Assembly: GCA_965207065.1 (NCBI GenBank)
Contig: OZ242260.1
Coordinates: 2,176,001-2,240,000, forward strand
Direction of reading: 5' to 3'
Length of the DNA stretch: 64,000 bases
Source: a bacterium
GTDB taxonomy: Bacteria; UBA8248
Positions 41,979 through 56,180 of the stretch are shown here, piece after piece (positions within the stretch are counted from its first letter, which is position 1; each line of letters starts with the position of its first letter). The translations under genes were made by a program, and so were the position numbers. The notes below the pieces were generated by a model, which searched no databases, was not told the DNA's origin, and saw only the letters and a list, made by a program, of their open reading frames with translations.

Positions 41979-42221
41979 GACCGGATTTCCCCCACTAAAT
42001 CAGAAACGAAAAAGACAATCAGGCGGAACTGTATAAAACCCTCTTGCGCGGAGCGCTTGAAAACCAAGTATGGGCGGTGGGTTTGCTCCACTTCACCTTG
42101 TATGGCCTCATATTAGCCCAAAAGAGACCCGGCGGCCAGTCCTGGAAATGGGGGTCAATCGCGACTGATGAAGGAGCGATTGCTGCGGACCAGGAAAACA
42201 ATAATACGCAAACCCTTCCGC

Positions 42222-42384
42222 CTCGGGGCTGCCCCACAGGTCGTGACCTCTCACTGCAATCCCTGTTGCCTTGTACCGTAGGGGCGGACCTGCGTGTCCG
42301 CCCGAAATGTTATTGAATGAGATATCGTGGTTATTACTTTCATTCCGGCGAAAGGCGGGCGGACACACGGGTCCGCCCCTACGA
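42222..42384. repeat. GTAG-type REP doublet plus degenerate repeat copies
   Basis: GTAGGGGCGGACCTGCGTGTCCGCCC (~42278) inverted against GGGCGGACACACGGGTCCGCCCCTAC (~42357). Confidence 0.8.
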
Positions 42385-42610
42385 AACCTGAATCGAAGAT
42401 CACCCACATCTCCCACCCGCCGGGCGGGCGTTGATCCCGAAGGCCATTTATGAAACCTTGGAAACTCCCGAGGGATTCATGGAGTCCTGGTTTCAATTCC
42501 GGCGCGGGCCGGTTGACGAGGAGACACGAGAGTCGCCGCGAGGTTTGCGGCGCGTAATCCTTATTTCATTTGCCGCCGGGCGGGCGGCCCCATTTGCGAA
42601 AGGAGCGGAC

Positions 42611-42904
42611 ATGGGCGCATACGTGGTCGGACACATCACCGTCAAGGACGAAGAGGGGTTCAACAACTACGCCGAGCAGGGGCTCGCAATCGTCGCCTCC
42701 GTCGGGGGCGAGGTGGCGGCGAGCGGACAGCTCGTGAAGGTGCTCACCGGCGAGCACGACAGGCAGATGTTCGTCCTCCTGAAGTTCCCCGACCAGGAGG
42801 CGGTGGAGAAATGGTATTACTCGGACGGTTACCAGGCCCTGATTCCGGGCCGCAACGAGGCGGTGGACATCACGTTCATCTCCTATGACGAGCCGGAGGA
42901 GTAA
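42611..42904 (+). CDS. DUF1330-family small protein
   Basis: AYVV..I.V.D...Y..GG..FP..E...WY.S..YQ.L...R pattern; AGGAG RBS. Confidence 0.85.
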   Translation: MGAYVVGHITVKDEEGFNNYAEQGLAIVASVGGEVAASGQLVKVLTGEHDRQMFVLLKFPDQEAVEKWYYSDGYQALIPGRNEAVDITFISYDEPEE

Positions 42905-43092
42905 GCGCAAACCGAGGGAGCGGGCGTGGGCGTTCCGGCCCGCGCCCGCTCTTCTCGTCCAGCCCCGAATCAGCACTCGATTCGCCGCCTCCATGAGAGC
43001 CCCGGCTTTCGCCGGAATGACGAAACTACTCCCGCGCAAGAACGGCGCGGGCGGTTCGCGACCTGTCCCTGCAGGCTCTGGTACGTAATTCC

Positions 43093-43911
43093 CTATTTTT
43101 TCCCGGCGGCGGCCGGTCTGGGCGCGGCCAGCGCCAGGGCGGAAGGCGCCCTGCGGAGGCTCAGCATGTAGACCGTGAGCGCTTCGAGATCCTCCGGCTT
43201 CAAATGGCCGTAGGCGGGCATGGCGGAACCGGGCGAAACCTTCTGCGGAAACTTGAAGTGTTCGATGTGCCACTTGGGGTCCTTCCGGCGCTCCCCCGCA
43301 AACGTCAGGTCGGGCCCGACGACCCCGCCGGCGCCCCTGATCTTGTGGCAGGCGAGACAGCCGTTCATCAGATACAGCAGCTTGCCCCTCTGGATGAGGG
43401 GGGCGTCTTTCAGGGCGCCCGCGTGGCAAGGGCCGCAGCTGGCCTGGATGAACCCGCCCCGCAGCAGCGGCTCCTCCCAGAACGGCACTTCTCCGTGGGC
43501 GTCCTGAACGCTCGTCGCCCGCCCCTGGCCCTGGTGGCACACGGTGCAGCCGAACTGCTCGAAGGGGTGCAGCGGGATGGTGGGATGCCTGGCGAAAGGC
43601 TGATCGGCATCCTTGAAAGCCGGGTGCTCGACCCCCCTGTGGCACATGACGCACCTGTCCACGCGCTCGCCTCCGGCCACGATGATCTGCTCGAACTGGT
43701 CCCCGCCCGACAGGGCGGCCTTGCGCTCCTCCTCGGTTCCGGCTCTTTCGACGAGCAATTCACGGAACGTCCGCTGGTAGCCCCGCCATTCACGGTCGTA
43801 GTCCTTCCAGACGGACAGCAGAAAAAACAGGGCCGCGCACACGCTCAGGGCGGCGAAGGCGACCACCCAGCCGAACGGCACATGGGAATCGTTGTGATTT
43901 GAATTCGCCAT
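43093..43911 (-). CDS. membrane-anchored tetraheme cytochrome c of a Rieske/cyt b complex
   Basis: N-terminal TM helix; CVMCH, CTVCH, CGPCH and CLACH; GPDL and PGSAMP in the last domain. Confidence 0.9.
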   Translation of the reverse strand: MANSNHNDSHVPFGWVVAFAALSVCAALFFLLSVWKDYDREWRGYQRTFRELLVERAGTEEERKAALSGGDQFEQIIVAGGERVDRCVMCHRGVEHPAFKDADQPFARHPTIPLHPFEQFGCTVCHQGQGRATSVQDAHGEVPFWEEPLLRGGFIQASCGPCHAGALKDAPLIQRGKLLYLMNGCLACHKIRGAGGVVGPDLTFAGERRKDPKWHIEHFKFPQKVSPGSAMPAYGHLKPEDLEALTVYMLSLRRAPSALALAAPRPAAAGKK

Positions 43912-43923
43912 TCGTCATCCGCC

Positions 43924-45420
43924 TCAGTGCAGACCCGTTGCCTGCCACGGCCATATCCAGGCCCAGTTGGCGCCGCGGAAATAAAGCCCGATGAACGTGT
44001 AAATCAGATAAGACGTCAGAAAATAAGAATACAGGGCCAGGGCCCCCATCCGGCTCGACCCCGTCCGCCGCCAGATGTAGAGCGAACCGACCGCGAAGAG
44101 GACGATCAGTATGGTCCCCGGATTCAGGAGGTCGACCCATATCTGCGAGGCGCCCGGAACCAGCTTCCGCACCGCGTAGTGCTCGTTCAGGTAGGTCAGG
44201 ACGATTACGACCGGAATGATGACCAGTATCGACCAGAGCGTGATCCGCCGGCCCTGGCCCGAGGTGAACCAGGTTCCCTGGCCCTCGGGATTGCGGTCGA
44301 TGTAGGGAATGGTCATGAGCCCGATAATCGCGGCGGCGGGAACGATGACGCCTCCCGCCAAAGCGGAATAGCTCACGATTTCCTGAAGCCCGAGAAAGTA
44401 CCAGGGCGCCTTGGCGGGGTTGGGCGGATGGTCCGGGTTGGCCAGCTCCTCCAGAGGCGCGTCGAAAAAGTAGGCGACGACGGAGAGGACGGCCACCACT
44501 CCCACGAAGACGACCAGCATCCGGAAAACCGTGTGAGGCCAGCTCATGACCTCTTCTTCCGGCGCCTGGGAGTCGACCATGGGTGTTCTGCCCTCGGCCA
44601 GTTCCACGAGCATGTATGTCTTGTGCGGCGAAAAAGCCGCCGCTTCGCCCGGGGCGGCCTCCGAGGGTGACGCGGGCGGCCGGGAGAGGCCTCCGTCCTT
44701 GCGAATCCGCCAGAAATGGACGCCCATGAGGATCATCATGATTCCCGGCAGGAGTATGACGTGCATGACGTAGAACCGGATCAGCGCATTCTGCCCCACC
44801 GTATCGCCCCCGAGCATCAGCGTGCGGATGTATTCTCCGACCAGCGGCGGATAGCTGGCGATGCTCGACCCGACGGTGATGGCCCAAAACGCGAGCTGAT
44901 CCCAGGGGAGGAGGTAGCCCGTGAAGCTCATCATCAGGGTCGCCCCCCAGAGGAGCACCCCGATGACCCAGTTGAACTCGCGGGGCGCCTTGTAGCTGGC
45001 CGTATAGAACACGCGGCACATGTGCAAGAAGACGACGGCGACCATCGCGTGAGCGGCCCAGCGATGGAGATTCCGCAGGACGACGCCGTAGGAGACGACG
45101 AATTCCAGGTCCTTCATGTCGCTGTAGGCGCGCTCGGTCGAGGGGACGTAGAAGAACATGAGCAAAGCGCCGGTGCCCAGAAGGATCACGAAGAGGAACA
45201 GGGAGATGATGCCGAGTCCCCAGGTATAGGTAGGTTTCAGGCTGTGAACGTGCGTTCGCGCGGGAAGGACGTGCAGGAAGAAATTCGAGAACATGACGGC
45301 CGCGCGATCCAGATCGTTGTCCGGATAGCCCCTGCGGAAGATCGAACGGACGACGCGGTTGTCCGTAAGCCACGATACGGCTTTCTTGCGCCCTGTTTCC
45401 TTAGGGGATTCGGTGACCAT
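43924..45420 (-). CDS. cytochrome b (b6-like N-terminal part fused to subunit IV-like part)
   Basis: Heme ligands in LHRWAAH..FLHM.RVF and [21 protein letters not shown]; Qo motif APWYF. Confidence 0.93.
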
Positions 45421-45429
45421 GATGACGGC

Positions 45430-45930
45430 TCAGATATTGAAATGCTCGGACGGGGCGACGACTTTGCGCGTATCGACCACGACGCGGCCATCCGGCGATT
45501 TCGTTATGTGGAAGAAGTCGAGCCCCCGAGGCGCAGGCCCCCCGAGCACCTGTCCCCGCCCGTCGAAAGTGCTGCCGTGGCACGGGCACCTGGCCCTCAA
45601 AATATCCGGAGATGCCCCCGGCGCCCCGACGAAGGGGGTAATCACGCAACGAAGATGGGGACAGACGGCCGTGCAGGCCCGGAACCCGTCCTTTTCACGA
45701 AACAGAACGATTTTCTTGTCGGCGAAAAACGTGATGGACCCCACGGTGTATTTCTCCAGGGCGTCGAGTTTCAGAACCGACTCGCCCTCATAAACGACGT
45801 TGGGGAACAGGAAGCGGACGTTGGCGAGGACCGGACCCAGCAGGGAAATCAGAAAGGAAACCCAGCCGAGGCCCAGGAGCATACGTCGCCGGGGGGTCTG
45901 TTCATCCATGCCCGCGCTCATGTCATCCAA
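45430..45930 (-). CDS. Rieske [2Fe-2S] subunit
   Basis: Tat-like RRRML anchor, CPHLRC and CPCHGSTF, and GPAPRGL. Confidence 0.93.
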   Translation of the reverse strand: MDDMSAGMDEQTPRRRMLLGLGWVSFLISLLGPVLANVRFLFPNVVYEGESVLKLDALEKYTVGSITFFADKKIVLFREKDGFRACTAVCPHLRCVITPFVGAPGASPDILRARCPCHGSTFDGRGQVLGGPAPRGLDFFHITKSPDGRVVVDTRKVVAPSEHFNI

Positions 45931-47968
45931 GCTCCACCCATTCTTCCTGGAAAGAAAAATTCTCGATGGTGACGGCGCCCGTGGGACAGCGCTGGGCGCA
46001 GAGCGAACAACGGATACACTTGTCCGGGTCCATGATCATGGCCGCGCCCCTCTCTACGGCGTCCCCGGCGGACGTTCCAAAGCGGGCCTGTACCAGAGCC
46101 GCCAGGTCCTCTCCTCCCTGCAGGGCTTCGAGGGGAACCATTCGCAGGCAGCGCGACGGGCAGACGTCCACACAGCCGCCGCAGAGGATGCACTTCGCGC
46201 CGTCGAAGATCGGGTTCGCGCTGCAGCGCAGACACCGAAGTCCCTGATCGACCGCTTCCCCGGGCGAATAGCCCAGTTCCACCTCGGCGACGCCGATTCT
46301 GCGCTCGATGGGCAGGGCGTCGGGATTTCGCCGAGACACTTTCTGGTATCCGGGGTTGACGATGGGAAGGGAAAACCCGTCCCCCGGCTCCTGGAGCAGC
46401 GCCTGCTGCAAGGGCTCGACAGAGGCCCACTGAAGATTTGTCTGGACGCCTGCCTGACCACCCGAGAGATAGGTGTGGATTGAGCGGGCGGCCCGGTGGC
46501 CGTTCTCCACGCCCTCGATGAAGATACGGGGGCCCATGGCGACGTCCCCGCCCGCGTACACGCCCGGAGCGGTCGTGGCCAGGGTTTCGGAGTCGACGCG
46601 AATGGTCCCGCGCGGCGTCGTCTCGACGCCGTCCTCCTCGCTGATCCAGGAAAGGTCGGAAGCCTGGCCGACGGCCACGATCACCGAATCGCACGGAATC
46701 ACGCGCTTGCTGTCCGGTTCGAATTCGGGGCTGAAGCGGCCCTCCTCGTCGAAGACGCGGGTGCACGTCTGGACTTCCAGCCCGACCACCCGGCCCTCTT
46801 TCTCCACGATGCGGACCGGCCCCACCCGGGGCTCGAGATCGATCCCCTCTTCGAGCGCCTCTTCAATCTCGAAGTCCGCCGCCGGCATCTCGTCGCGGGA
46901 TTCCAGGCAGATGACGTGGACGTTCCTCGCCCCCACGCGCATCGCCTCGCGGGCCACGTCCATCATCTCGCGCATGAGGACGGCGTCTTCCGTTTGATCG
47001 GCCGCGCTCGGGGAGGCATCTGCCTCGCCGGCCACCCGGGCGGCGACCCGGGCGGCGTCCATGGCCACGTTTCCCCCGCCGATCACGACGACGCGCTCGC
47101 CCAGTTCGACGCGGAAGTTCAGATTCACGTTCAGCAGGAATTCGACGGCCCGGAAAACGCCGTCCGCATCCTGGCCCTCCATGGGAAGAGAGCGGCTCAC
47201 ATGCGCGCCGATGGCGATGAACACCGCCTCGAAGCCTTCCTCGCGAAGGGTGGAGAGGTTGAAGTCCCGCCCGATGGCCTTGTTCACCCGAAGGTCCACG
47301 CCCAGGCTTAAGATGGCCTGAATCTCGGCCTGAACGAGATCGCGCGGAAGGCGGTATTCGGGAACCCCGAGCATCAGCATGCCTCCGGGGACGCCCTGTT
47401 TTTCGAAAACGCTTACGTCATAGCCGAGCAGGGCGAGATCGTGCGCGCAGGTCAGCCCCGCCACGCCCGAGCCGACGACGGCCACCTTTCGCCCCGCCGT
47501 TTCCACCCCCCCGGGCTTGCGGCGGGCCGCTTCCAGCACGGAGAAATCGTTGATGGTGCGCGTGGAGGGCTGAAAGCGGAGGTCGCGCATACTCCTGAGG
47601 CTGCGGTGCGAGAAGGAGGATTCCCCCTTGCCGGACGCCAGATCGGCCTCCACCCCGTAGCGCTCCGTCACGAATCGCTTGAGCGCACGGATGGCCACCG
47701 GCGCATCGATGTTGCCGCGGCGGCAGGCGGCTTCGCACGGCGCCGCGCAGACGCGCCCGCAAACCGACGCGAAGGGGTTGGGGCCCCGGGCGATGATGTA
47801 CGCGCGCTCGAAGTCTTCCTCTGAGATGGCGGTCACGTAACCCCGCGCGTCGGTATGGACGGGACACGCATCCTGACAGCAAATCGTTTTCCGCCAATGG
47901 TCGTGGCCGGGCAACTCGACCCGAAAGGAGCGCCCGGGAGGGAAGGGGTCCCGATTCGCTGAGTCCAT
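45923..47968 (-). CDS. cytoplasmic FAD/NAD(P)-dependent Fe-S oxidoreductase (GltD/NfnB-like) with C-terminal 2[4Fe-4S] ferredoxin
   Basis: CQDACP and CGRVC..PCE.AC, GSGVAG, GGGNVA, RCLRC, CILCGGCVDVCP and CIRCSLCAQRCP; no signal peptide. Start placed at ATG 47968. Confidence 0.9.
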   Translation of the reverse strand: MDSANRDPFPPGRSFRVELPGHDHWRKTICCQDACPVHTDARGYVTAISEEDFERAYIIARGPNPFASVCGRVCAAPCEAACRRGNIDAPVAIRALKRFVTERYGVEADLASGKGESSFSHRSLRSMRDLRFQPSTRTINDFSVLEAARRKPGGVETAGRKVAVVGSGVAGLTCAHDLALLGYDVSVFEKQGVPGGMLMLGVPEYRLPRDLVQAEIQAILSLGVDLRVNKAIGRDFNLSTLREEGFEAVFIAIGAHVSRSLPMEGQDADGVFRAVEFLLNVNLNFRVELGERVVVIGGGNVAMDAARVAARVAGEADASPSAADQTEDAVLMREMMDVAREAMRVGARNVHVICLESRDEMPAADFEIEEALEEGIDLEPRVGPVRIVEKEGRVVGLEVQTCTRVFDEEGRFSPEFEPDSKRVIPCDSVIVAVGQASDLSWISEEDGVETTPRGTIRVDSETLATTAPGVYAGGDVAMGPRIFIEGVENGHRAARSIHTYLSGGQAGVQTNLQWASVEPLQQALLQEPGDGFSLPIVNPGYQKVSRRNPDALPIERRIGVAEVELGYSPGEAVDQGLRCLRCSANPIFDGAKCILCGGCVDVCPSRCLRMVPLEALQGGEDLAALVQARFGTSAGDAVERGAAMIMDPDKCIRCSLCAQRCPTGAVTIENFSFQEEWVELG

Positions 47969-47978
47969 GCTCGCGACC

Positions 47979-48365
47979 CTATTTCGCCAGCGAGCGCATG
48001 AATGCGACCAGGTTCTGGAGGTCGGCGTCCGAAAGAACACCGCCCCAGGGTGGCATCAACGGTGATTTCCCTACCGCGACCCCGCCCAGCTTGGTGATCT
48101 TGGCGATATACTCGTCCGTTATGGTCTTCATGTATTTGGCGTCCGTGTGGTTTCGCGGCTTCGGGTTGAGCGCCTTGGCTGCGACGCCGTCTCCCTTGCC
48201 CGTTACACCGTGGCAGGAGGCGCAAAGCTGCTGGTATTTGACCTTGCCGGCTGCAACGTCGCCTTTCTGCTGAGCAGCGCTGTCACCTGCGGACGAGAAA
48301 AAGAGCGCCACAGCGAGCACCGGGCCTGTGCAGATGATAAATCTTCTCGATCGAGACATTCGCAT
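47979..48365 (-). CDS. periplasmic monoheme class I cytochrome c
   Basis: Signal peptide, CASCHG..GKGDG and distal Met in LMPPW. Confidence 0.92.
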   Translation of the reverse strand: MRMSRSRRFIICTGPVLAVALFFSSAGDSAAQQKGDVAAGKVKYQQLCASCHGVTGKGDGVAAKALNPKPRNHTDAKYMKTITDEYIAKITKLGGVAVGKSPLMPPWGGVLSDADLQNLVAFMRSLAK

Positions 48366-48412
48366 TCAACCTCCCTCGCGGTTCTGCGGGCTTGTGTAAA
48401 CTTCCACCTCCG

Positions 48413-51079
48413 TTAAAGCGTCCGGGGAACGAAGCTCAAGCTCGTCAGCGAATGCTTGTGCGGAGACTCTCCTATCTTCTTCAACTTCCCCTTGCCCAGC
48501 TTGTAGCGGTAGCGGTTGGTCAGGGGGTCCGGCACCCGGTGAACCACCGAATTGGCCGGGTTCTCGGGAAAACCGAAATAGGCGAAGGTGACGCCCTCCC
48601 GAACCGCGTCGGTGACCATGGCCACGGCGGTGAAGCTCCCCTTGCTCTTCTTGATCCGCCCGGCCTTCATGAGCTCGGTGAAGGTCTGCTCCTTGCCGTC
48701 GACGCCGATGTATCCGCCCGTCTGCACGAGGAGGTCGTCGTTCTCGATGGCCACCAGGTCTCCTGATTCGATGCCCCGGGCGCCGGCGTCTTTGGGGTGT
48801 ATCTCCAGGAACTGCTGCGGCCAGCGCTGCATGATGTAGGGCCGACGCTTGTCGTCGTAGCCGGATTGCCAGAGCTCGTTGATCCGCCCGTTCGTCACCC
48901 ACAACTCGTCTCCCTGCGGGGTGACCCGCTCGTAGAAATCCTTGAAGTCCTCCCAGTAGCTCTTCAGCAAAACCGCCTTGCCGCTCTGGGTCCCGAAGGA
49001 GGTGAGCCACTTCCTGTGCATGGTGGGGCCTTCGGGGGTTCCCAGTTCGAGGGTCTCGTCGTGGAGCCGCTTCGTCCCGACGAGTTCGCCCTTGACCATG
49101 CGGATGGGGGTCTGGATGCCGCCGGTCCCGTATTCGCGGAGCAGTTCGTGGCCCCGTTTCCCCTCGCGCTTGGCCTTCACGACGAGCGGATGGTAGTTGA
49201 GCACCCCTTTTCTTCCGAAGCGGGCCGCCTCCTCGAATATCTGGTTGCTGTCCTTCCAGTCGAAGCCCTTGAAGCCCATCTTCCTCGCGAAAGCGGCGAT
49301 GATCCACCAGTCGGGCCGGGCCTCTCCGGGCGGGTCGGCGAATTTGCTGTAGAGCCTGAGGCGGCGCTCGCCGTTGCAGCGGGTGAAGTCTTCCTCGCCC
49401 CAGGTGGCGGCCGGAAGAATCAGATCCGAATACTCGGTTCCGATGGGAGCAACCGGGTAGATATCCTGGTGGGCCACGACCATGCCGCCGGCGTCCACTC
49501 GCCGCTTTAAGGCGTCCACCGCCGAATCGACGTCGAAGCTCTCGATCTGATGCGGGTTGCGGCGCGTCAATCGCTGGAAGACGTCCATCAGCTCCTGTGA
49601 CGCCGCCATGGCCTGGCACCAGGTGGTTCCGATGACCCATGCGAAGCGAACGTGGCCGTCCACGACCCAGCGGTCGAGGTCGATCTCCTTCTTGCGGCGC
49701 CCCGGCGCCTTCTCCGGAGATAAGGCCCTCGGGTAACCGGCCGCGCCCATCCAGCCCCGTTGGTGCCCACCGCCCCGGGAGATAACACGGCCCGGCCGCG
49801 ACCCGGCGCCGCAGACCAGCCCGAGGGCCGCGAACGAAGCCGTGTTCCCGAAACTGTTGCACCAGTAGTTTCCCTTCTCGAGCATGAACGAGGTCTTCTT
49901 GCGCGTTCCGTCGGGCTTGGGCTTGGCGAGGATTTCGGCTGTCTTTCGAATGTCCGCCGCCGGCACGCCCGTGATCTTCGCGGCTCGCTCCAGTTCGGCG
50001 TAGGGATAGCTCAGGATCCACTTCCTGTAGCCCTCGAAGTCGGTCCCGTACTTGCCCCAGGTCGTGACCCACTGCCACGGCGTGTTGCGGGTGCCGCGTC
50101 CCATGCCGGAGCCGATCTCCCACTTGTTCGACACCTTTCTCGCGATAAACTCCTTGTCCTCCCAGCCGTTCTCGAGGATCAGGCGGATGATGGCCAGTTG
50201 GAGAACCGTATCCGTTCCCGGAATCACGGGGAGGAAGAGGCCTCCCTGCTTCTCGCCGTAGGCCACGCCCGAGGTCTTGCGCGGAAGGGCGAAGACCAGC
50301 TTCTTGTTCGGCGTTTTTCCGCCCATGATCCACGAGGTGAATAGCACCGACTTGGTCTCCCACGGGTCGACGCCCGAGAAGAAAATAACCTCGGCCTCTC
50401 CCCAGTCGTCATAGGAGGCGCTGAAGGGATTGATGCCTGAAAAATCGATCCCCGGCGTATCCGGACCGGGACCCGGCTTGTCGTGCGGGGCATACGCCGG
50501 CGTTCCGATGGCTCGGAAGGCGAGTTTGGAGATGGCGTAGGTGTTTTCGAAATACTGATAGGAATACGTCTTCATGGCCCAGGCGTGTTCGCCGAACTTG
50601 TCGAGCACGTGTTTCGAGATTCCCGCCATGACGCCCATGGCCGTATCCCACGAGACCTCCTGCAAGGTTCCGCGAACGCGCATCATCGGCTGGCGCAGGC
50701 GGTCCTGCGAGGGTTCGTTGGGATTGTAGAGCTTCTTCGCCAGGACGCCGCCCCGGATGGAGTGGTTTCCCCCGACGTTCACGACCTTCGCATCCTTGTC
50801 CGGCATGACGATGACGTGGTGTGGGCGGCCGTTCACCATGATGATGTTGTGCATGTTCGGGCTGACCCAGCCGCCGCTCATGATGCCGGTGGGAAAATCG
50901 ACGCCCAGCGCGTTCTGGTTGGCCCTGGGCCCGCCCTCGCGCCCGATCGGCCAGCGGTAGACCTTGTACCCGCAGCCCACGATGCAGTAATCGCACGCCG
51001 TGGTGAAAACCTCCGCGTTTCGCGGGGGGAGGGGGACACTGTCTTCCGCAAGGTAGTAGTTCGTTACCTTTCCTGCCAT
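48413..51079 (-). CDS. idrA: AioA/IdrA-family molybdopterin oxidoreductase large subunit; iodate reductase IdrA-like
   Basis: [3Fe-4S] motif C29-X2-C32-X3-C36-X70-S107 (CDYCIVGC...NHSIRGG). Active-site segments HDKPGPGPD and RGGGHQRG differ from arsenite oxidase HNRPAYNSE and RxGGHQEG. No signal peptide. Adjacent to a Rieske gene and two peroxidase genes. Confidence 0.82.
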   Translation of the reverse strand: MAGKVTNYYLAEDSVPLPPRNAEVFTTACDYCIVGCGYKVYRWPIGREGGPRANQNALGVDFPTGIMSGGWVSPNMHNIIMVNGRPHHVIVMPDKDAKVVNVGGNHSIRGGVLAKKLYNPNEPSQDRLRQPMMRVRGTLQEVSWDTAMGVMAGISKHVLDKFGEHAWAMKTYSYQYFENTYAISKLAFRAIGTPAYAPHDKPGPGPDTPGIDFSGINPFSASYDDWGEAEVIFFSGVDPWETKSVLFTSWIMGGKTPNKKLVFALPRKTSGVAYGEKQGGLFLPVIPGTDTVLQLAIIRLILENGWEDKEFIARKVSNKWEIGSGMGRGTRNTPWQWVTTWGKYGTDFEGYRKWILSYPYAELERAAKITGVPAADIRKTAEILAKPKPDGTRKKTSFMLEKGNYWCNSFGNTASFAALGLVCGAGSRPGRVISRGGGHQRGWMGAAGYPRALSPEKAPGRRKKEIDLDRWVVDGHVRFAWVIGTTWCQAMAASQELMDVFQRLTRRNPHQIESFDVDSAVDALKRRVDAGGMVVAHQDIYPVAPIGTEYSDLILPAATWGEEDFTRCNGERRLRLYSKFADPPGEARPDWWIIAAFARKMGFKGFDWKDSNQIFEEAARFGRKGVLNYHPLVVKAKREGKRGHELLREYGTGGIQTPIRMVKGELVGTKRLHDETLELGTPEGPTMHRKWLTSFGTQSGKAVLLKSYWEDFKDFYERVTPQGDELWVTNGRINELWQSGYDDKRRPYIMQRWPQQFLEIHPKDAGARGIESGDLVAIENDDLLVQTGGYIGVDGKEQTFTELMKAGRIKKSKGSFTAVAMVTDAVREGVTFAYFGFPENPANSVVHRVPDPLTNRYRYKLGKGKLKKIGESPHKHSLTSLSFVPRTL

Positions 51080-51091
51080 GATGCGTCCTCC

Positions 51092-51634
51092 TCAGCGCTG
51101 TACCGGCGCAAGATTCGAGTGGTAACCGTATAGCAGCCCCATCATCCCGATCGCGTAGATGTCGTCCCCGCGGGTCTCCAGTACGACCTGGGGGAGGCTT
51201 TCCGTGGCCTGCCCGGCCCCGACCATCCCGTGCTTCATCAGGTCGAAGGTCGTCAGATGGAACGGGCACGGGCCAATGGCCTTGTGCTGCGCGTTGTATG
51301 TGCCCTGGAGGGGACCGCCCATGTGGGTGCACAGGGTGCTGAACGCCACGACGTCTCTCCTGGGGCCGACGCCGCCGCCTGCGGCGACGCCCAGCTTGAC
51401 CAGCATGCACCCCGAGAAGACGTCCTTCCACGGATACTGGAAGAACTGGGGGGTATCGACTTTGAGGGCGCTTAGCTTGCCGATTTTCCGGCGGGGATAC
51501 TCAGCCCTCTGCAGGGCCGCACCGGCCAGGCCGGGGATGCCCTCGACCAGCACGATGCTCATGGCGGTTCCGCCGGCCAGGAGAAAGGCGCGCCGCGAGA
51601 CGCAAGGCCGGGTTTCCTTGGCTTCCTGAGTCAT
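51092..51634 (-). CDS. idrB: AioB/IdrB-like Rieske small subunit, Tat-exported
   Basis: SRRAFL twin-arginine signal; CTHMG and CPFH ligands; GQATESLPQVVL and GLLYG as in the AioB family. Confidence 0.82.
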   Translation of the reverse strand: MTQEAKETRPCVSRRAFLLAGGTAMSIVLVEGIPGLAGAALQRAEYPRRKIGKLSALKVDTPQFFQYPWKDVFSGCMLVKLGVAAGGGVGPRRDVVAFSTLCTHMGGPLQGTYNAQHKAIGPCPFHLTTFDLMKHGMVGAGQATESLPQVVLETRGDDIYAIGMMGLLYGYHSNLAPVQR

Positions 51635-51644
51635 GGATTCCTCC

Positions 51645-52784
51645 TTACTGCATGGCCGCGTACGGCGGCAGTTCGGGGGGCTTCATGAGCAAAGGCTCAT
51701 CGCTCGATAACGATTCCAGGAAGGCGAGCAGGTCTTCCTTCTCCTCGTCAGAAAGCCCCAGTTTCTTGAGAAGCGGACTCTTGTTCGCGTCCTCTCCCCC
51801 TCCTTCGTCATAAAAGTCAATGACCTCATCCAACTCGAAAAACGCGCCGTTGTGCATATAGGGCGCCGTGTATTTCAGCTCCCTGAGGCTGGGGGTACGG
51901 AACCTCCCCGTATCAGCCTTGCGCTTGGTGGTGTAGTAGAGCCCCAGGTCCCGGTCCGCTTTCCGGTAGACGGATTCGGGAACGCCTCTGATCACGTGCT
52001 GGAAGCGAAGCGTTATCTGCCTCAAGGGGTCTTCCTCGAACGCGGGGTTCTTCGGCACGCCGACGTTGTGATAGTCCTCATCCGAGAGGAGAGGGCCGTT
52101 GTGGCACTGGACGCACCCCGCCTTTCCTTGAAAAAGAGCCAGCCCGCGCTCAGCGCTTTCCGAGAGCGCCTTCTTGTCCCCTTTCATGAAGCGGTCGAAC
52201 GGCACGTCCTTCGCATTCGAAACTATGGTGCGCTCGAAGGCCGAGATGGCCCGCCATGCGTCGTCGATGGTCGGCCAGGGGGATCCGAACACCGTACGGA
52301 AGCGCTTGACGTATTCGGGAATCTGGCGCAGGCGCTCCTCCATCATCATGGTGTCGCCGTTTCCGGCCACGTTGCCCGTGGCGGCGCTCTTGGCCTGGGC
52401 TTCGAGGCTCGGGACCTCGCCCGCCCAGAACAGTTTTGCGTAATAGGCGGAATTGAGGATCGTCTGGGAATTCCGCCAGTGCTGCGTGCCCGGGTAGCCC
52501 CGGCTCAGGTCCCCGCCGTCTCCCCAGCCGCTCTCGGGGCTGTGGCAGGAGGCGCACGACGTGCTGGCGTCCCCCGACAGGCGGGCGTCGAAAAAGAGCA
52601 GCTTGCCCAACGCCACCTTGGCGGGTGACATGGGATTGTCCGCAGGCACCGGAACAGGCGGCAAGGGCCCCAGCGGAGGGAATTTCCCCTTCTCGGCCGC
52701 GTCCGCTCCTCCCACCAGAAGGGCGGCGATGAAGCAGACGGCCATCGTGGAACCCAGGAAGCAGTTTTTCATTCGCGCGTTCAT
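51645..52784 (-). CDS. diheme cytochrome c peroxidase/MauG family (IdrP-like)
   Basis: Signal peptide, LG..LFFD.RLS, CASCH, CVQCH, FRTPSLR and TAPYMHNG. ATG 52784 follows GAGGAG. Confidence 0.9.
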   Translation of the reverse strand: MNARMKNCFLGSTMAVCFIAALLVGGADAAEKGKFPPLGPLPPVPVPADNPMSPAKVALGKLLFFDARLSGDASTSCASCHSPESGWGDGGDLSRGYPGTQHWRNSQTILNSAYYAKLFWAGEVPSLEAQAKSAATGNVAGNGDTMMMEERLRQIPEYVKRFRTVFGSPWPTIDDAWRAISAFERTIVSNAKDVPFDRFMKGDKKALSESAERGLALFQGKAGCVQCHNGPLLSDEDYHNVGVPKNPAFEEDPLRQITLRFQHVIRGVPESVYRKADRDLGLYYTTKRKADTGRFRTPSLRELKYTAPYMHNGAFFELDEVIDFYDEGGGEDANKSPLLKKLGLSDEEKEDLLAFLESLSSDEPLLMKPPELPPYAAMQ

Positions 52785-52794
52785 GGCCGTCTCC

Positions 52795-53901
52795 TCAATT
52801 ATCGCCGAGTTTGCGGAGTTCATAATCGGGAATTTTCGGTTCTTTCGCGGAAACCACCTCGCCCGAGAGGCTCTTCATGAATTCCACCAGCGCCTTTTGC
52901 TCACCCGCATCGAGTCCCAGCGGCTTGAGCCGCGGACTCTTGTTCGGGCCGCTCCCGCCGCCCTTGTTATAGAAGGCGACGACGTCCTCAAGCGCGGCGA
53001 GCGCGCCGTTGTGCATGTAGGGAGCCGTCCGGGCGACTTCGCGCAGGGTCGGCGTGCGGAACTTGCCCCGGTCGCGCTCCTCTTTCGTCACGACGTAGAG
53101 GCCCGGGTCGGCCCTCAGATTCATGAAGTTCGGGACGCCGATCACCTTGTTGAAGCGGCGGAACGTGATGTGGCGCAGCGGGTCCTTGAATATCTGTTCG
53201 TTTTCGGGAACGCCGAGCGCATGAAATCCGCCGTCGCTCAAAAGAGCGCCATTATGGCACCCGGCGCATCCGGCCTTCCCCCGGAAGAGGGCGAGACCCT
53301 TCTGCGCCTCGGCGGAAAGGGCCTTTTTGTCGCCCTTCAAGTAGTTGTCGAAAGGCACGTTCCTGGACGTGATGGTATGAAGGAACGCCGCGATGGCCTT
53401 GAGCGAGCCGCCGAAGGAAGGCTCCCCGCCATAGGCCTCCTTGAACATCTTGACGTAGGCGGGAACCTGCTTGAGCCGCTCGGGGAACAGACGGCCGTCC
53501 ACCAGCATGAAGTGGGCTTCCGTCAGGTGGTCCCGCACGAGGGTGGGCAGGTCGGCCCCGCTCAGGCGACCGTCCCAGAAAACGCGCTTGTTGTAGGCGG
53601 CGTTCAGGAGCGTCTGGGCGTTCCGGAAATACTTGCTGCCGGGATAGCCCGTAGAGAGGCTCTGCCCGTCGCCCCATCCCCTGGCGGGTTGATGGCAGGT
53701 GGCGCAGCTGATGCCTCCGTCCCCCGACATGCGGGGGTCGAAGAACAGATGCCGGCCCAGTTCGGTCTGCGCGGGCTTCTGGGCCCTGGGCGCCGGCAGG
53801 GGTTCGAGAGATGCCCCCCACCCCGCTGCAGGGAGCAAGACCCAGGCGCTCAGCAGGATTCCGCAGAGTATCCGGCGCCGGATGGCGCGAACTAAATCCA
53901 T
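52795..53901 (-). CDS. second diheme cytochrome c peroxidase/MauG family protein (IdrP-like)
   Basis: Signal peptide, CATCH, CAGCH, FWDGR, FRTPTLR and TAPYMHNG. Confidence 0.9.
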   Translation of the reverse strand: MDLVRAIRRRILCGILLSAWVLLPAAGWGASLEPLPAPRAQKPAQTELGRHLFFDPRMSGDGGISCATCHQPARGWGDGQSLSTGYPGSKYFRNAQTLLNAAYNKRVFWDGRLSGADLPTLVRDHLTEAHFMLVDGRLFPERLKQVPAYVKMFKEAYGGEPSFGGSLKAIAAFLHTITSRNVPFDNYLKGDKKALSAEAQKGLALFRGKAGCAGCHNGALLSDGGFHALGVPENEQIFKDPLRHITFRRFNKVIGVPNFMNLRADPGLYVVTKEERDRGKFRTPTLREVARTAPYMHNGALAALEDVVAFYNKGGGSGPNKSPRLKPLGLDAGEQKALVEFMKSLSGEVVSAKEPKIPDYELRKLGDN

Positions 53902-53973
53902 TCTTCCCTCCTCCCAAGCTGGCTGTTCTATCTCCTGTAAGACATCCGTCCCGTATATGCTGGAAATACGGCC

Positions 53974-54717
53974 TTATTTCGAAGAGAACGTGAAGGCGGC
54001 GGTCTTCTTCCCCCCGGCGGTTATGGTGATCTTCTTCTTCTTGACCCCCAGGGCCGGGTGCCACGCCCGCAGGGAATATTTCCCCGGAGGAACGTCGTTG
54101 ATCTCGAAGCTCCCGTCATCGTTCACGAGCGCGTAATAGGGATTCCTGGCCACGAAGAGAAAGCCCTTCATCCAGTTGTGCACGTCGCACTCGATACGGA
54201 CGATGGGGCTGCGCCGGACCTTCGCCCTGCGGACGACTTTCTTCCGCTGCTTGGGCTGGGAGATGTTCCACATGGAGCGTTTCGCCCGGCCGATGATCTC
54301 GTAGGTGTGGATGTTGTGGTGGGCGTCGTCGCTGTTCAGGATGGTGACCTTGCCCCCCTCGGCGACGACCTGGAGGTAGGGGACGTAGGCGCACTTCTTC
54401 TGGTCCACCACGGCGCTCTGGATTTTCTCGGGGTAAGCCTTGCCCTTCTTCACCTTGTCGAGATAGACGACAACGCCCCTGAGGGCGCCGTCCTTCGCGT
54501 CCACCTCCTGGCGGGTGACCTGGCCCTCCCCGCAGGCGTGCTGGTCCTTGGTGATGATGTATTTGACGGGCTTGGGAGGCTCGCCCTCGAAGCTCACCTT
54601 GCCGGTGACGGCGCCGCCGCCTGTGATAGATACGACTTTGTACTTCGCCAGGGAAGCGTCTGGAAAAAAGAGAAAAGGCAGGGACAAAACGAAAGGCAAG
54701 AAAAATTTACGAATCAT
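53974..54717 (-). CDS. secreted carboxypeptidase-regulatory-like / cupredoxin-like protein
   Basis: Signal peptide, NSD...HNIH, ECDVHNWM and G.F.I.DVPPG.Y.L.AWH. Confidence 0.75.
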   Translation of the reverse strand: MIRKFFLPFVLSLPFLFFPDASLAKYKVVSITGGGAVTGKVSFEGEPPKPVKYIITKDQHACGEGQVTRQEVDAKDGALRGVVVYLDKVKKGKAYPEKIQSAVVDQKKCAYVPYLQVVAEGGKVTILNSDDAHHNIHTYEIIGRAKRSMWNISQPKQRKKVVRRAKVRRSPIVRIECDVHNWMKGFLFVARNPYYALVNDDGSFEINDVPPGKYSLRAWHPALGVKKKKITITAGGKKTAAFTFSSK

Positions 54718-54953
54718 TGCGAAAGCTCCCCCACGAAGTCCTGCATTGGCTCACGGCAACCCTGTCATCTATGAATCCGAGTCGTAATCCATCCTCCTCA
54801 TCAGCGGAGTGTCGGCGCGGAACGCGAACTTCCTTGCGTTTCCGGTCCCGTCCGAACGTGTGAGAAGCGGTATCGACACCCCTGAAACGCTACGGATATC
54901 CGGTCCTGAATCCATGAGTGCCGCGCGCTCTTTATAAGCTTGTTCCTGTTTTC

Positions 54954-54984
54954 AATATAAGGACAACGCTCGAATGTTGCAACA
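54954..54984 (-). promoter_or_regulatory. candidate sigma70 promoter of the respiratory operon with an overlapping palindrome
   Basis: Minus-strand TTGCAA-N17-TATATT; the -35 sits inside the perfect palindrome TGTTGCAACA (54975-54984). Confidence 0.5.
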
Positions 54985-55159
54985 AAATGGAAGTCCGGTT
55001 TTTCCCCGATGGGCGGGGCGTTGCAAGGGCCGTTGCCAGGGTGGCGAACGCTCCCTCCTTCCCCGGGAGCGCCCCACACCTATATGTCTGACCTACACCA
55101 GCCTCGCGACCAAATCGATTTGCGGGATGAGGGTGTGAAAGAGACGAAAAGGCAAAATC

Positions 55160-55268
55160 AAAATGGATTCCGGCTTTCGCCGGTATGACGAGCAAAACCG
55201 CACCGCCTCTTGTAGTGACAGCCCCTCCACGGGGCTGTCCCACAGGTCGCGACCTGTGTCCCTACGGC
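55160..55268. repeat. CGTC-type plus GTAG-type repeat composite
   Basis: ATGGATTCCGGCTTTCGCCGG.ATGACGA.CAAAACCGCAC.GCCTC matches ~41259-41305; the following unit matches ~14851-14905. Confidence 0.85.
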
Positions 55269-55337
55269 ATTTTCAACCACCCCGAGGAGGGGGGTTGCCG
55301 CATATTCCCTCCCGGACAAGGTATGTTATTTCGCGGG

Positions 55338-56180
55338 CTACCCCTTCACCGCGCCGGCCGTCATGCCGGCGATGATCTGACGCGCCGAGAAGAAGGTGAA
55401 GATCAGCGGCGGGATGACGATGAGCGTGCCCATCGCCATGATGCGCCCCCATTCGGGGCCGGAGTCCGTGAGGAACAGGCTGGTGGCGACCGGCAGCGTG
55501 CGCGTGGTCCTGTCCGTCAGCAGCAGGGCCAGGATGAACTCGTTCCATGCGATCCGGAACACGAAGATGCCGGTGACGGCGTATCCCGCCTTCATCACCG
55601 GGAAGAGGACGCGGGTGAACACCTGCCAGGGCGTGGCCCCGTCCACGATGGCGGCTTCCTCGAGCTCGACCGGAACCTGCTTCACGAAGCCGTAGAGCAG
55701 CCAGATGGAGAAGGGCAGGTTGAGCGCCGTGTAGAAGAAGACGAGGCCCGAAAGCTGGTTCGCAATCCCCAGCACGATGGAGACTGCGAAGGCCGGGATC
55801 GCCAGCACCGCCGGCGGTATCATGCGGACGAGGAGCGCCCCGTTGGCGATGGACTGGCGGCCCGGGAACTGCATGCGGGCCAGCGCGTAGGCCGCCATGC
55901 CGCCGGTCGTCAGCGTGATCAGGGTTGTCGAAACGCCCACGATGACGGAATTCACCAGATACCGGTCGAAGTGCGCATCGCCGATGATGTCGGCGTAGTT
56001 CTGCAGGGTGGGGAAGAAGAAAAACCACACGGGATTCCCGTCGAAGATCAGCACCTCGTTCTTGAAGGAAGTGCTGATCATGATGTAGATGGGCGTCAGG
56101 CATATGATCGACAACAGGATGAGCCCCGCGTAGTGGAAGATCATTCTCGGTTTGGCCGGTTCGAAACGCATCGCCTTCAC
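55338..56180 (-). CDS. carbohydrate ABC transporter permease (MalG-like)
   Basis: EAA loop ELEEAAIVDGA, WNEF and six TM segments. Confidence 0.93.
   Translation of the reverse strand: MKAMRFEPAKPRMIFHYAGLILLSIICLTPIYIMISTSFKNEVLIFDGNPVWFFFFPTLQNYADIIGDAHFDRYLVNSVIVGVSTTLITLTTGGMAAYALARMQFPGRQSIANGALLVRMIPPAVLAIPAFAVSIVLGIANQLSGLVFFYTALNLPFSIWLLYGFVKQVPVELEEAAIVDGATPWQVFTRVLFPVMKAGYAVTGIFVFRIAWNEFILALLLTDRTTRTLPVATSLFLTDSGPEWGRIMAMGTLIVIPPLIFTFFSARQIIAGMTAGAVKG

Follow-up and report, generated by a model that had tools for sequence, protein, structure and literature searches.

Putative iodate reductase genes joined to genes for a predicted flavoprotein-bearing Rieske/cytochrome b complex in one ten-gene string

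Introduction

The iodate reductase system IdrABP1P2 is known from Pseudomonas sp. SCT, Denitromonas iodatirespirans IR-12, Azoarcus sp. DN11 and Azonexus hydrophilus NCP973, and a putative system is assigned to Ca. Methylomirabilis iodofontis. The idr cluster of IR-12 is described in the main text of PMC8692401 without a quinone oxidoreductase, which agrees with a preliminary description of the DNA treated here, where idr clusters were taken to lack a dedicated membrane quinol-oxidising complex. Here we analyze a string of ten genes (g1 to g10) in a stretch of 64,000 nucleotides, called the window throughout, from a bacterium of the GTDB lineage UBA8248 (assembly GCA_965207065.1, contig OZ242260.1, positions 2,176,001 to 2,240,000). 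In this string a cupredoxin-like gene (g1) and a set in the P2-P1-B-A order of idr genes (g2 to g5) are followed by five genes (g6 to g10) that appear to encode a quinone oxidoreductase.

Described counterparts of g6 to g10 are the clusters Kuste4569-4574 and Kustd1480-1485 of the anammox bacterium Kuenenia stuttgartiensis (PMC12954380). According to the hypothesis put forward for these complexes, the electrons of quinol bifurcate: one reaches a high-potential acceptor via the HAO-like enzyme of the same cluster, and the other passes from the b haems via four Fe-S clusters and flavin adenine dinucleotide (FAD) to NAD(P)+ (PMC12954380). As a further point of reference the arsenite oxidase AioBA was considered, with Pseudorhizobium banfieldiae NT-26, Alcaligenes faecalis and Thermus thermophilus HB8 as reference systems.

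Results

The Large Subunit and the idr Core

For comparison, at least 561 Idr-like loci were confirmed in the GTDB species genomes and the best 80 of them were read. Loci are given L labels in the following and genomes of the host phylum G labels, with G000 standing for the host.

The large subunit g5 shares 58.4% identity with the IdrA-type plasmid protein of Azonexus hydrophilus NCP973, a strain counted among five isolated iodate respirers (PMC13455634), and 28.5% and 30.1% with the AioA proteins of NT-26 and Thermus HB8. Its matches among the PLSDB plasmids were bimodal in identity: 23 AioA-type records, NT-26 and Thermus HB8 among them, reach 27.6-30.9%, whereas three Idr-like proteins, from Azonexus hydrophilus NCP973, Thiothrix and Vibrio, reach 49-59%. 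Proteins from Rokubacteria, NC10, Lindowbacteria and Planctomycetaceae have been counted as deep IdrA (PMC8692401), and that of Ca. Methylomirabilis iodofontis likewise as a putative IdrA (PMC10989891); to named proteins of this kind g5 is 75-77% identical in Rokubacteria and NC10 and 64% identical in Lindowbacteria.

A FastTree phylogeny was calculated from 95 rows, comprising the window protein, 78 of the 80 related loci, 10 named database proteins, two Idr-like plasmid proteins and four AioA proteins; L030 (internal stop in the high-scoring segment pair), L031 (partial cover) and the IdrA proteins of Denitromonas IR-12 and Pseudomonas SCT were omitted. The four AioA proteins were split from the 91 Idr-like rows with a support of 100, and the window protein stands on the Idr side. 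There it belongs to a 12-row "Nitrospinota" clade which is sister to Methylomirabilota/Rokubacteria and lies beside a proteobacterial clade with Azonexus and Notoacmeibacter marinus, the latter of which reduces iodate (PMC11445184). Signature columns were defined as those in which the four AioA proteins agree while at least 95% of the Idr-like rows carry another residue, and in 19 of 19 such columns the window protein has the Idr-like residue. Glu207 of NT-26 is replaced by Asp.

Subunit g5 contains the motif C29-x2-C32-x3-C36 for a 3Fe-4S cluster and no signal-like N-terminus, and the N-terminus of g4 (...CVSRRAFLLAGG...) places a signal for twin-arginine translocation (Tat) on the IdrB-type and none on the IdrA-type subunit, both as judged by eye. 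Both proteins exceed the curated cut-offs of TIGR02694 and TIGR02693, which are arsenite-oxidase models; such models fail to tell Idr and Aio apart, since the Idr genes of Azonexus bear the same product name. Directly upstream of g4 and g5 stand g2 and g3, that is, two dihaem peroxidase genes beside idrBA, the criterion applied in PMC8692401, and on the Azonexus plasmid the locus reads P-P-B-A-cytochrome c. We conclude that g5 is, judged by its sequence, an Idr-type molybdenum (Mo) enzyme and not one of Aio type, so that the assignment made in the preliminary description is borne out by identity, by the split in the tree and by the signature columns.

The locus thus resembles IdrABP1P2 in its P2-P1-B-A order, in the Tat signal on the Rieske subunit only, in the 3Fe-4S motif and in its place in the Idr-like clade, and the system of Azonexus also in a small c-type cytochrome gene behind idrA. 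It departs from the published idr clusters in adding a five-gene quinone oxidoreductase set and a cupredoxin gene at the head. With AioBA it shares the two-subunit architecture, the cofactor motifs and a downstream cytochrome c gene, but identity is 28-30%, the clade is a separate one, aioSR regulator genes are absent and peroxidase genes are present.

The loci read include some deviating arrangements. Six loci of marine Dehalococcoidia/Chloroflexota (L055, L056, L059, L061, L065 and L066), which form one tight clade in the tree, have a single peroxidase gene directly upstream of the IdrA-like gene and no IdrB-like match at the threshold used. In L088, from a metagenome-assembled genome (MAG) of Pseudomonadota, two IdrB-like genes and no peroxidase genes were found beside the IdrA-like gene, and in the Planctomycetaceae MAG locus L051 the IdrA-like gene is the sole match despite full flanks.

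The Flavoprotein Rieske/Cytochrome b Module

In g6 to g10 the operon holds a Rieske protein, a cytochrome b of the b6 plus subunit IV type, a multihaem cytochrome c and an FAD- and NAD(P)-binding Fe-S protein. The best solved relative of g8 was 9rk4 (E 7.3e-15), with 9rk3 further down (E 1.7e-9); these entries are Kuste4569 and Kustd1480 of Kuenenia (PMC12954380). For g7 the best solved relatives were NfnABC (9bov/9bp5, E 2.5e-80) and NfnB, and 9bp5 is also the structural homologue found for the Kuenenia NAD(P) reductase subunit Kuste4570 (PMC12954380). The g7 gene occurs as a single copy in the host genome and adjoins g8 to g10 in all 14 module loci read.

Among solved proteins g9 is related to cytochrome b6 (E 1e-41). 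The His pairs for two b haems are kept, and an invariant His50 in the N-terminal extension might be the counterpart of an additional haem b ligand that has been proposed in Kuenenia. At residues ~335-342, the quinol-site motif of g9 reads KAPWYF, in contrast to the PEWY usual in cytochrome b/subunit IV. This motif is invariant in 8/8 module copies aligned. In a complex prediction, residues 1-300 of g9 together with g7 scored 0.49, the best control reaching 0.00; at least 75% of contacts were shared between the runs, with a partner pLDDT (predicted local distance difference test) of at least 74. The mark used for such predictions is reached by 58 of 80 solved complexes and by 2 of 110 mismatched pairs; for scores of 0.60 or below the figures are 7 of these 80 complexes and both of the mismatches that passed.

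The small cytochrome g6 also precedes the flavoprotein gene in the free-standing modules L112, L113 and L114 (67-72% identity over residues 44-128) and travels with the Rieske/cytochrome b module in the host phylum. It probably connects the membrane complex with IdrAB. Small c-type cytochrome genes were seen behind the large-subunit gene in the proven idr cluster of the Azonexus plasmid (L117, 8718-9035) and in the proven aio cluster of NT-26 (L119, 5606-5989), so that there are precedents for a gene such as g6 behind idrA.

On these grounds g6 to g10 are assigned to a flavoprotein-bearing Rieske/cytochrome b complex of the anammox type, the sequence comparison with Kuenenia covering the Rieske proteins only. 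As in the anammox complexes, a Rieske protein, a b6-like cytochrome b, a subunit IV, a multihaem cytochrome c and a cytoplasmic FAD/Fe-S NAD(P) protein are combined in one operon, which is tied to a terminal reductase on the periplasmic side (IdrBA here, the HAO-like Kuste4574 in Kuenenia); Kuste4569 is the closest Rieske protein with a solved structure, and the flavoproteins have the same Nfn-like relatives. The differences concern the order flavoprotein-Rieske-cytochrome b, the fusion of cytochrome b with subunit IV, the c subunit, which is tetrahaem here and hexa- or octahaem there, and the terminal enzyme, a Mo enzyme presumed to act on iodate here and an octahaem nitrite/NO enzyme there. 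In addition, g9 lacks the Cys for haem cn, at the position that we assume for it.

Linkage of idr and the Module Across Genomes

The P2-P1-B-A core, i.e., two peroxidases, IdrB and IdrA, is present in 64 of the 80 loci. Genes g7, g8 and g9 were found together in ten of them, all "Nitrospinota", and nine loci have the full ten genes in identical order, a degree of conservation far above what chance would give. An eleventh close relative, L012, lies on a 5.7-kb contig that ends just past idrA. In NC10, Chloroflexota and Binatia, orthologues that share the architecture of g7 at 49-61% identity are common.

The GTDB phylum of the host comprises 51 species genomes including the host, of which 17 are IdrA-positive, and all 17 hold the flavoprotein. 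The flavoprotein occurs without IdrA in G040, G050 and G021, in the last as a fragment at a contig end. A single contig carries idrA and, 443-846 nt behind it, the flavoprotein gene in 14 genomes, namely G000, G007 and 12 of the 13 genus mates that have IdrA; in G014 both genes are at contig ends. G007 belongs to another family and has all ten genes in the same order with 62-82% identity, which suggests that it acquired the string by transfer as a whole. In G036 the module lies upstream of g1-P2-P1-B-A, and the cytochrome b encoded there shares 82-86% identity with those of the free-standing modules and 61% with g9 of the window. Given the different order and the other module lineage, idr and the module were therefore joined twice, independently.

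These comparisons identify the five-gene module as a self-standing cassette, and they show that the link between idr and the module is real but lineage-specific. The preliminary description had called the enzyme "hard-wired" to the complex and had named a lack of synteny elsewhere as a finding that would speak against it. Synteny was found in 15 genomes of the phylum and in two gene orders, so that the pairing itself stands; the wording goes too far insofar as the complex is not unique to idr and the link is confined to one lineage.

Rrf2-family genes stand ahead of the free-standing modules at 12496-12963 in L112, 9038-9523 in L113 and 6149-6787 in L114, and no such gene is present in the joined form. 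In G040 (L112, 13411-17453) the DNA upstream of the Rrf2 gene encodes a 912-aa Mo/Fe-S protein that resembles NAD-type formate dehydrogenase, and a NuoF-like flavin mononucleotide (FMN) subunit. Formate dehydrogenase as the partner of the G040 module was considered and not adopted; the genes are of cytoplasmic type and stand behind the Rrf2 gene.

Layout of the Ten-Gene String

On the minus strand, the open reading frame (ORF) listing of the window shows ten co-oriented ORFs which tile positions 54717 to 43093 almost without gaps (Table 1). The spacers from g1 to g10 measure 72, about 10, 10, 12, 47, 10, about 0, 9 and 12 nt. The G+C content of the window (59-68%) makes spurious ORFs abundant; the ten-gene tiling stands out nonetheless. 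Ten co-oriented genes with gaps of at most 72 nt, as reported earlier, were hence recovered at the same positions, and domain scans agree with the gene list. The single overlap noted before, between g2 and g3, exists as annotated and vanishes once the ATG at 52784 is taken as the beginning of g3; this ATG has GAGGAG 6 nt ahead of it and is the probable true start.

According to a scan of the spacer sequence, the 47 nt between idrA and g6 carry GAGGGAGG and no terminator-like site. In total 19 terminator-like sites were found against 11.6 expected; the 11 on the operon strand within the operon all lie inside coding sequence and are uninformative. Downstream, the end of the operon is bounded by a convergent DUF1330 gene.

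Contigs from four RNA libraries (X15-X18) of three studies were placed on positions 43000-54800. The libraries are labelled "sponge metagenome" and contain contigs that are 90-99% identical to the operon. X18 covers 27 of 30 bins, with no contig at 52850-53637 and 54426-54800, such holes in the cover being uninformative, and its contigs bridge idrA/g6 (48144-48550) and g8/g7 (45706-46981). X15, X16 and X17 yielded short contigs on both halves with 90% to >99% identity, some bins remaining without a contig. Co-transcription, which had been proposed for checking, is supported insofar as a contig bridges the junction of idrA and g6; a contig over two genes is not proof of one transcript. Separate transcription of the two halves, named earlier as a possible counter-finding, was not found. 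On balance the ten-gene string is probably one transcription unit assembled from two older modules.

TABLE 1. Positions and assignments of the ten genes and of a promoter-like site in the window.
Feature	Position	Strand	Assignment	Evidence
g1	53974-54717	-	Secreted two-domain protein, 247 aa; predicted type-1 copper (cupredoxin) domain and C-terminal CarboxypepD_reg-like beta-sandwich	Alignment, AlphaFold2, Foldseek, Pfam
g2	52795-53901	-	Dihaem CCP/MauG-type peroxidase, IdrP2 position	PF03150 E 3.7e-42; two CXXCH; N-terminal signal-like segment
g3	51645-52823	-	Dihaem CCP/MauG-type peroxidase, IdrP1 position	PF03150 E 4.5e-43; two CXXCH
g4	51092-51634	-	IdrB/AioB-type Rieske small subunit, twin-arginine signal SRRAFLL	TIGR02694 123.5 bits (cut-off 95.65); PF00355
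g5	48413-51079	-	IdrA-type molybdopterin large subunit, 888 aa	PF18465, PF00384, PF01568; TIGR02693 458.7 bits (cut-off 359.05)
g6	47979-48365	-	Small monohaem cytochrome c, first gene of the five-gene module	PF13442, PF00034; one CXXCH
g7	45923-47968	-	Cytoplasmic GltD/NfnB-like FAD- and NAD(P)-binding Fe-S flavoprotein	PF07992; PF14691 (N-terminal Fer4_20); PF12838 (C-terminal 2x[4Fe-4S] ferredoxin)
g8	45430-45930	-	Membrane-anchored bc/b6f-type Rieske protein, CPHLRC ... CPCHGS, RRR signal-anchor	PF00355
g9	43924-45420	-	Cytochrome b, 498 aa, b6-like and subunit IV-like fusion with C-terminal extension	PF00033, PF13631, PF00032; ExtP/ExtQ models
g10	43093-43911	-	Membrane-anchored tetrahaem cytochrome c in the place of c1/f	Four CXXCH; N-terminal hydrophobic helix; C-terminal FixO/cbb3-like monohaem domain
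Promoter-like site 5' of g1	54954-54982	-	Sigma-70-like	Single match in 42000-56000, 2.1 expected by chance (weak)

The Blue-Copper Protein g1

Pfam recognizes in g1 the C-terminal CarboxypepD_reg-like beta-sandwich alone and leaves the copper domain unrecognized. An alignment of 20 rows revealed invariant residues His134, Cys177, His180 and Met183 in an amicyanin-like C-x2-H-x2-M arrangement, together with C62 and C109. The AlphaFold2 model (pLDDT 90.9) had plastocyanin, amicyanin and pseudoazurin as its top Foldseek matches (E 2e-5 to 6e-4). The label "cupredoxin-like" given to g1 earlier is hence justified by conserved copper ligands and fold, though Pfam misses the domain.

In 32 of the 80 related loci a g1 homologue precedes idrP2, and g1 is a candidate electron carrier to IdrAB. 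Clusters headed in this way include L019, L036-L049, L052, L053, L057, L060, L062, L064, L068, L072 and others, and the hosts of g1 homologues belong to Planctomycetota, Myxococcota, Hydrogenedentota, Acidobacteriota, Rokubacteria and Nitrospinota. The spacing between the homologues of g1 and g2 is variable, with 400-825 nt in L009, L010, L011, L013 and L025 and 72 nt in the window. In the Pirellulaceae loci L044 and L046, idrB-idrA is split from the cupredoxin-P2-P1 trio, which lies ~4-6 kb downstream of idrA.

Host Genome

The window is part of a closed 4.48-Mb genome. Besides the operon, this genome encodes complex I and a second cytochrome b, which is of the split b6 type and lies away from the operon. 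No NarG/Nxr-type enzyme over the cut-off was found in the host genome, no match exceeding 33 bits, and RuBisCO was not found in it either; an ATP-citrate-lyase-type match (Citrate_bind) is borderline with 28.6 bits. With no NarG/Nxr-type match above 33 bits, a coupling of nitrite oxidation to iodate, an idea from PMC11373643, was dropped. One ORF of the Cld family (chlorite dismutase) is present in the genome, far from the operon. Upstream of the region under study the window contains an unrelated gene for a large Lhr-type helicase of 1441 aa (DEAD, DEAD_assoc, Lhr winged-helix; 36416-40741, plus strand).

Discussion

We read g1 to g10, with a probability of roughly 0.6, as a dedicated chain from quinol to iodate, in which we infer the use of iodate and in which the flavoprotein would tie the low-potential haem b branch to NAD(P). 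In such a chain IdrBA, equipped with molybdenum bis-pyranopterin guanine dinucleotide (Mo-bisPGD), the 3Fe-4S cluster and the Rieske center, would reduce iodate in the periplasm, and the dihaem peroxidases g2 and g3 would clear reactive by-products. The Qo site of g9/g8 would oxidize quinol, whose high-potential electron would leave through the Rieske protein and then the tetrahaem g10. Soluble g6, the cupredoxin g1 or both would take it over and hand it to IdrBA and the peroxidases; blue-copper proteins of the g1 kind head many deep-branching idr clusters. Flavoprotein g7 would sit on the negative side of cytochrome b and join its low-potential haem b branch with NAD(P). Likewise, we infer the physical attachment of g7 as well as the route and the direction of the electrons. 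The presence of a second b6-type cytochrome b and of complex I elsewhere in the host genome would fit a dedicated use of the complex encoded here.

Several points weigh against this reading. No g8 or g9 match at E 1e-3 was found in the other 69 idr loci, and a g7 orthologue at 1e-50 was absent from five of five Methylomirabilota/Rokubacteria idr genomes, whose completeness is not given; Idr therefore works without the module elsewhere. Conversely, G040, G048 and G050 have g6 to g10 as a free-standing unit with a gene for an Rrf2-family regulator immediately ahead of it, and G048 holds both idr and the module on different contigs. The IdrA proteins that have been assayed belong to the proteobacterial branch or to SAR324, and the branch of Nitrospinota/Methylomirabilota holds no assayed member; the fork between the proteobacterial branch and that of the window is unresolved in the tree, which comes from FastTree only. 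Unlike the Kuenenia models, g9 has no Cys at what is presumably the position where cytochrome b6 binds haem cn, and the complex prediction lends weak support to an attachment of g7 to cytochrome b. The RNA-library contigs may include DNA, and they reveal neither strand nor ends nor whether one transcript spans the genes. Finally, RuBisCO was not found and the ATP-citrate-lyase match is borderline, so that no particular demand for NAD(P)H from reverse electron flow is evident.

For the direction of electron flow within a quinol-to-iodate chain, an iodate-pulled bifurcation, by which one quinol electron would go to Idr and the other via the b haems and the flavoprotein to NAD(P)+, is put forward tentatively. 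By analogy with the anammox complexes, NAD(P)+ reduction by bifurcation is rated somewhat above NAD(P)H oxidation; iodate forms a very positive redox couple, and the host has complex I for the ordinary oxidation of NADH. Nearly as likely as bifurcation is the opposite direction, a self-contained NAD(P)H:iodate chain of a heterotroph: g7 would oxidize NAD(P)H, and the electrons would enter cytochrome b or the quinone on the negative side and reach Idr by way of the Rieske protein and the c haems. Flavoproteins of the GltD/NfnB type run in either direction, the presumed absence of the haem cn Cys from g9 suits this course, and with RuBisCO not found and no NarG/Nxr-type enzyme over the cut-off the host may be an organotroph with ample NAD(P)H, and a lithotrophic need is not apparent. 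Against it, complex I is present and a non-pumping entry of NAD(P)H would be wasteful, as has been argued for the anammox complexes (PMC12954380).

Other explanations change the substrate or the coupling. The Mo enzyme belongs to a deep branch, that of Nitrospinota, Methylomirabilota and Rokubacteria, in which no member has been assayed, it is just 58-60% identical to the proteins of iodate reducers, and many holders of the branch are groundwater MAGs by their record titles; it may hence act on chlorate, bromate or another high-potential oxyanion, or in an oxidation, with the complex serving that reaction. We regard this as unlikely, although it is compatible with a dedicated chain, since the P2-P1-B-A core is common to the proven systems, the Idr-like residues are complete at the signature columns, and distant Idr clusters from MAGs of Alphaproteobacteria and SAR324 reduced iodate when expressed in E. 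coli (PMC13455634). That a general respiratory complex came to lie behind idr by chance, both modules being neighbours without functional coupling, would agree with the solitary modules under their own Rrf2 regulator in G040, G048 and G050 and with Idr lacking the module in most lineages. It is quite improbable in view of the two independent joinings in different orders, the absence of the Rrf2 gene from the joined form with its 47-nt spacer, the preserved order of ten genes in G007 from another family, and the module in 17/17 IdrA-positive genomes of the phylum, which are kin and do not amount to a statistical test. Very improbable indeed is an arsenite oxidase (AioBA) whose electrons would be pushed back via the Rieske/cytochrome b complex to NAD(P)+: the NCBIfam arsenite-oxidase models are over cut-off for g4 and g5, and relatives are named arsenite oxidase or arsenate reductase (azurin) in the databases, but g5 is 28-30% identical to proven AioA and 58% to the Idr type and lies on the Idr side of the fully supported split (support 100), Asp replaces Glu207 of NT-26, and the two peroxidase genes present here are reported as missing from aio neighbourhoods (PMC8692401).

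The idr set and the flavoprotein Rieske/cytochrome b complex are each already known; their fusion was not found in print. The main text of PMC8692401 does not mention cytochrome bc, quinol, Nitrospin, NADH, flavoprotein, cupredoxin or azurin, its figures and supplements lying outside this statement, and uses "Rieske" once, in a figure legend where it designates the IdrB-type subunit. The part of PMC13455634 considered here likewise makes no mention of Rieske, cytochrome b, Nitrospin or quinol. In connection with Nitrospinota, PMC11373643 names iodate just as a possible oxidant for nitrite oxidation. No description of the idr plus Rieske/cytochrome b architecture was found in the literature searched, though figures or supplements, e.g., the ten-gene neighbourhood figure of PMC8692401, might show the genes. 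The earlier statement that no description was known therefore holds for the joined architecture and not for its halves, idr on the one hand and the anammox-type complex (PMC12954380) on the other, and the full gene order did not appear in the main texts searched.

With regard to the electron source of iodate respiration, this lineage would write a full supply chain into the operon, as a first written-out supply for Idr, with the cupredoxin g1 and the small cytochrome c g6 as likely direct donors. The sponge-metagenome RNA libraries hold near-identical contigs of the operon genes, and the findings suggest a part for abundant sponge-associated bacteria in the cycling of iodine in the sea.

To our knowledge, the role of the NAD(P) flavoprotein on anammox-type Rieske/cytochrome b complexes has never been shown biochemically. 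For the mechanism of such complexes the operon offers a compact, assayable test bed, with a soluble and readily assayed terminal enzyme, a very positive substrate couple and hosts with closed genomes, in which quinol, iodate and NAD(P) can be measured together. If bifurcation holds true, a sponge symbiont would make NAD(P)H straight from the quinol pool without spending proton-motive force, and the operon would be a natural, genetically compact proof of a mechanism so far only proposed for anammox bacteria.

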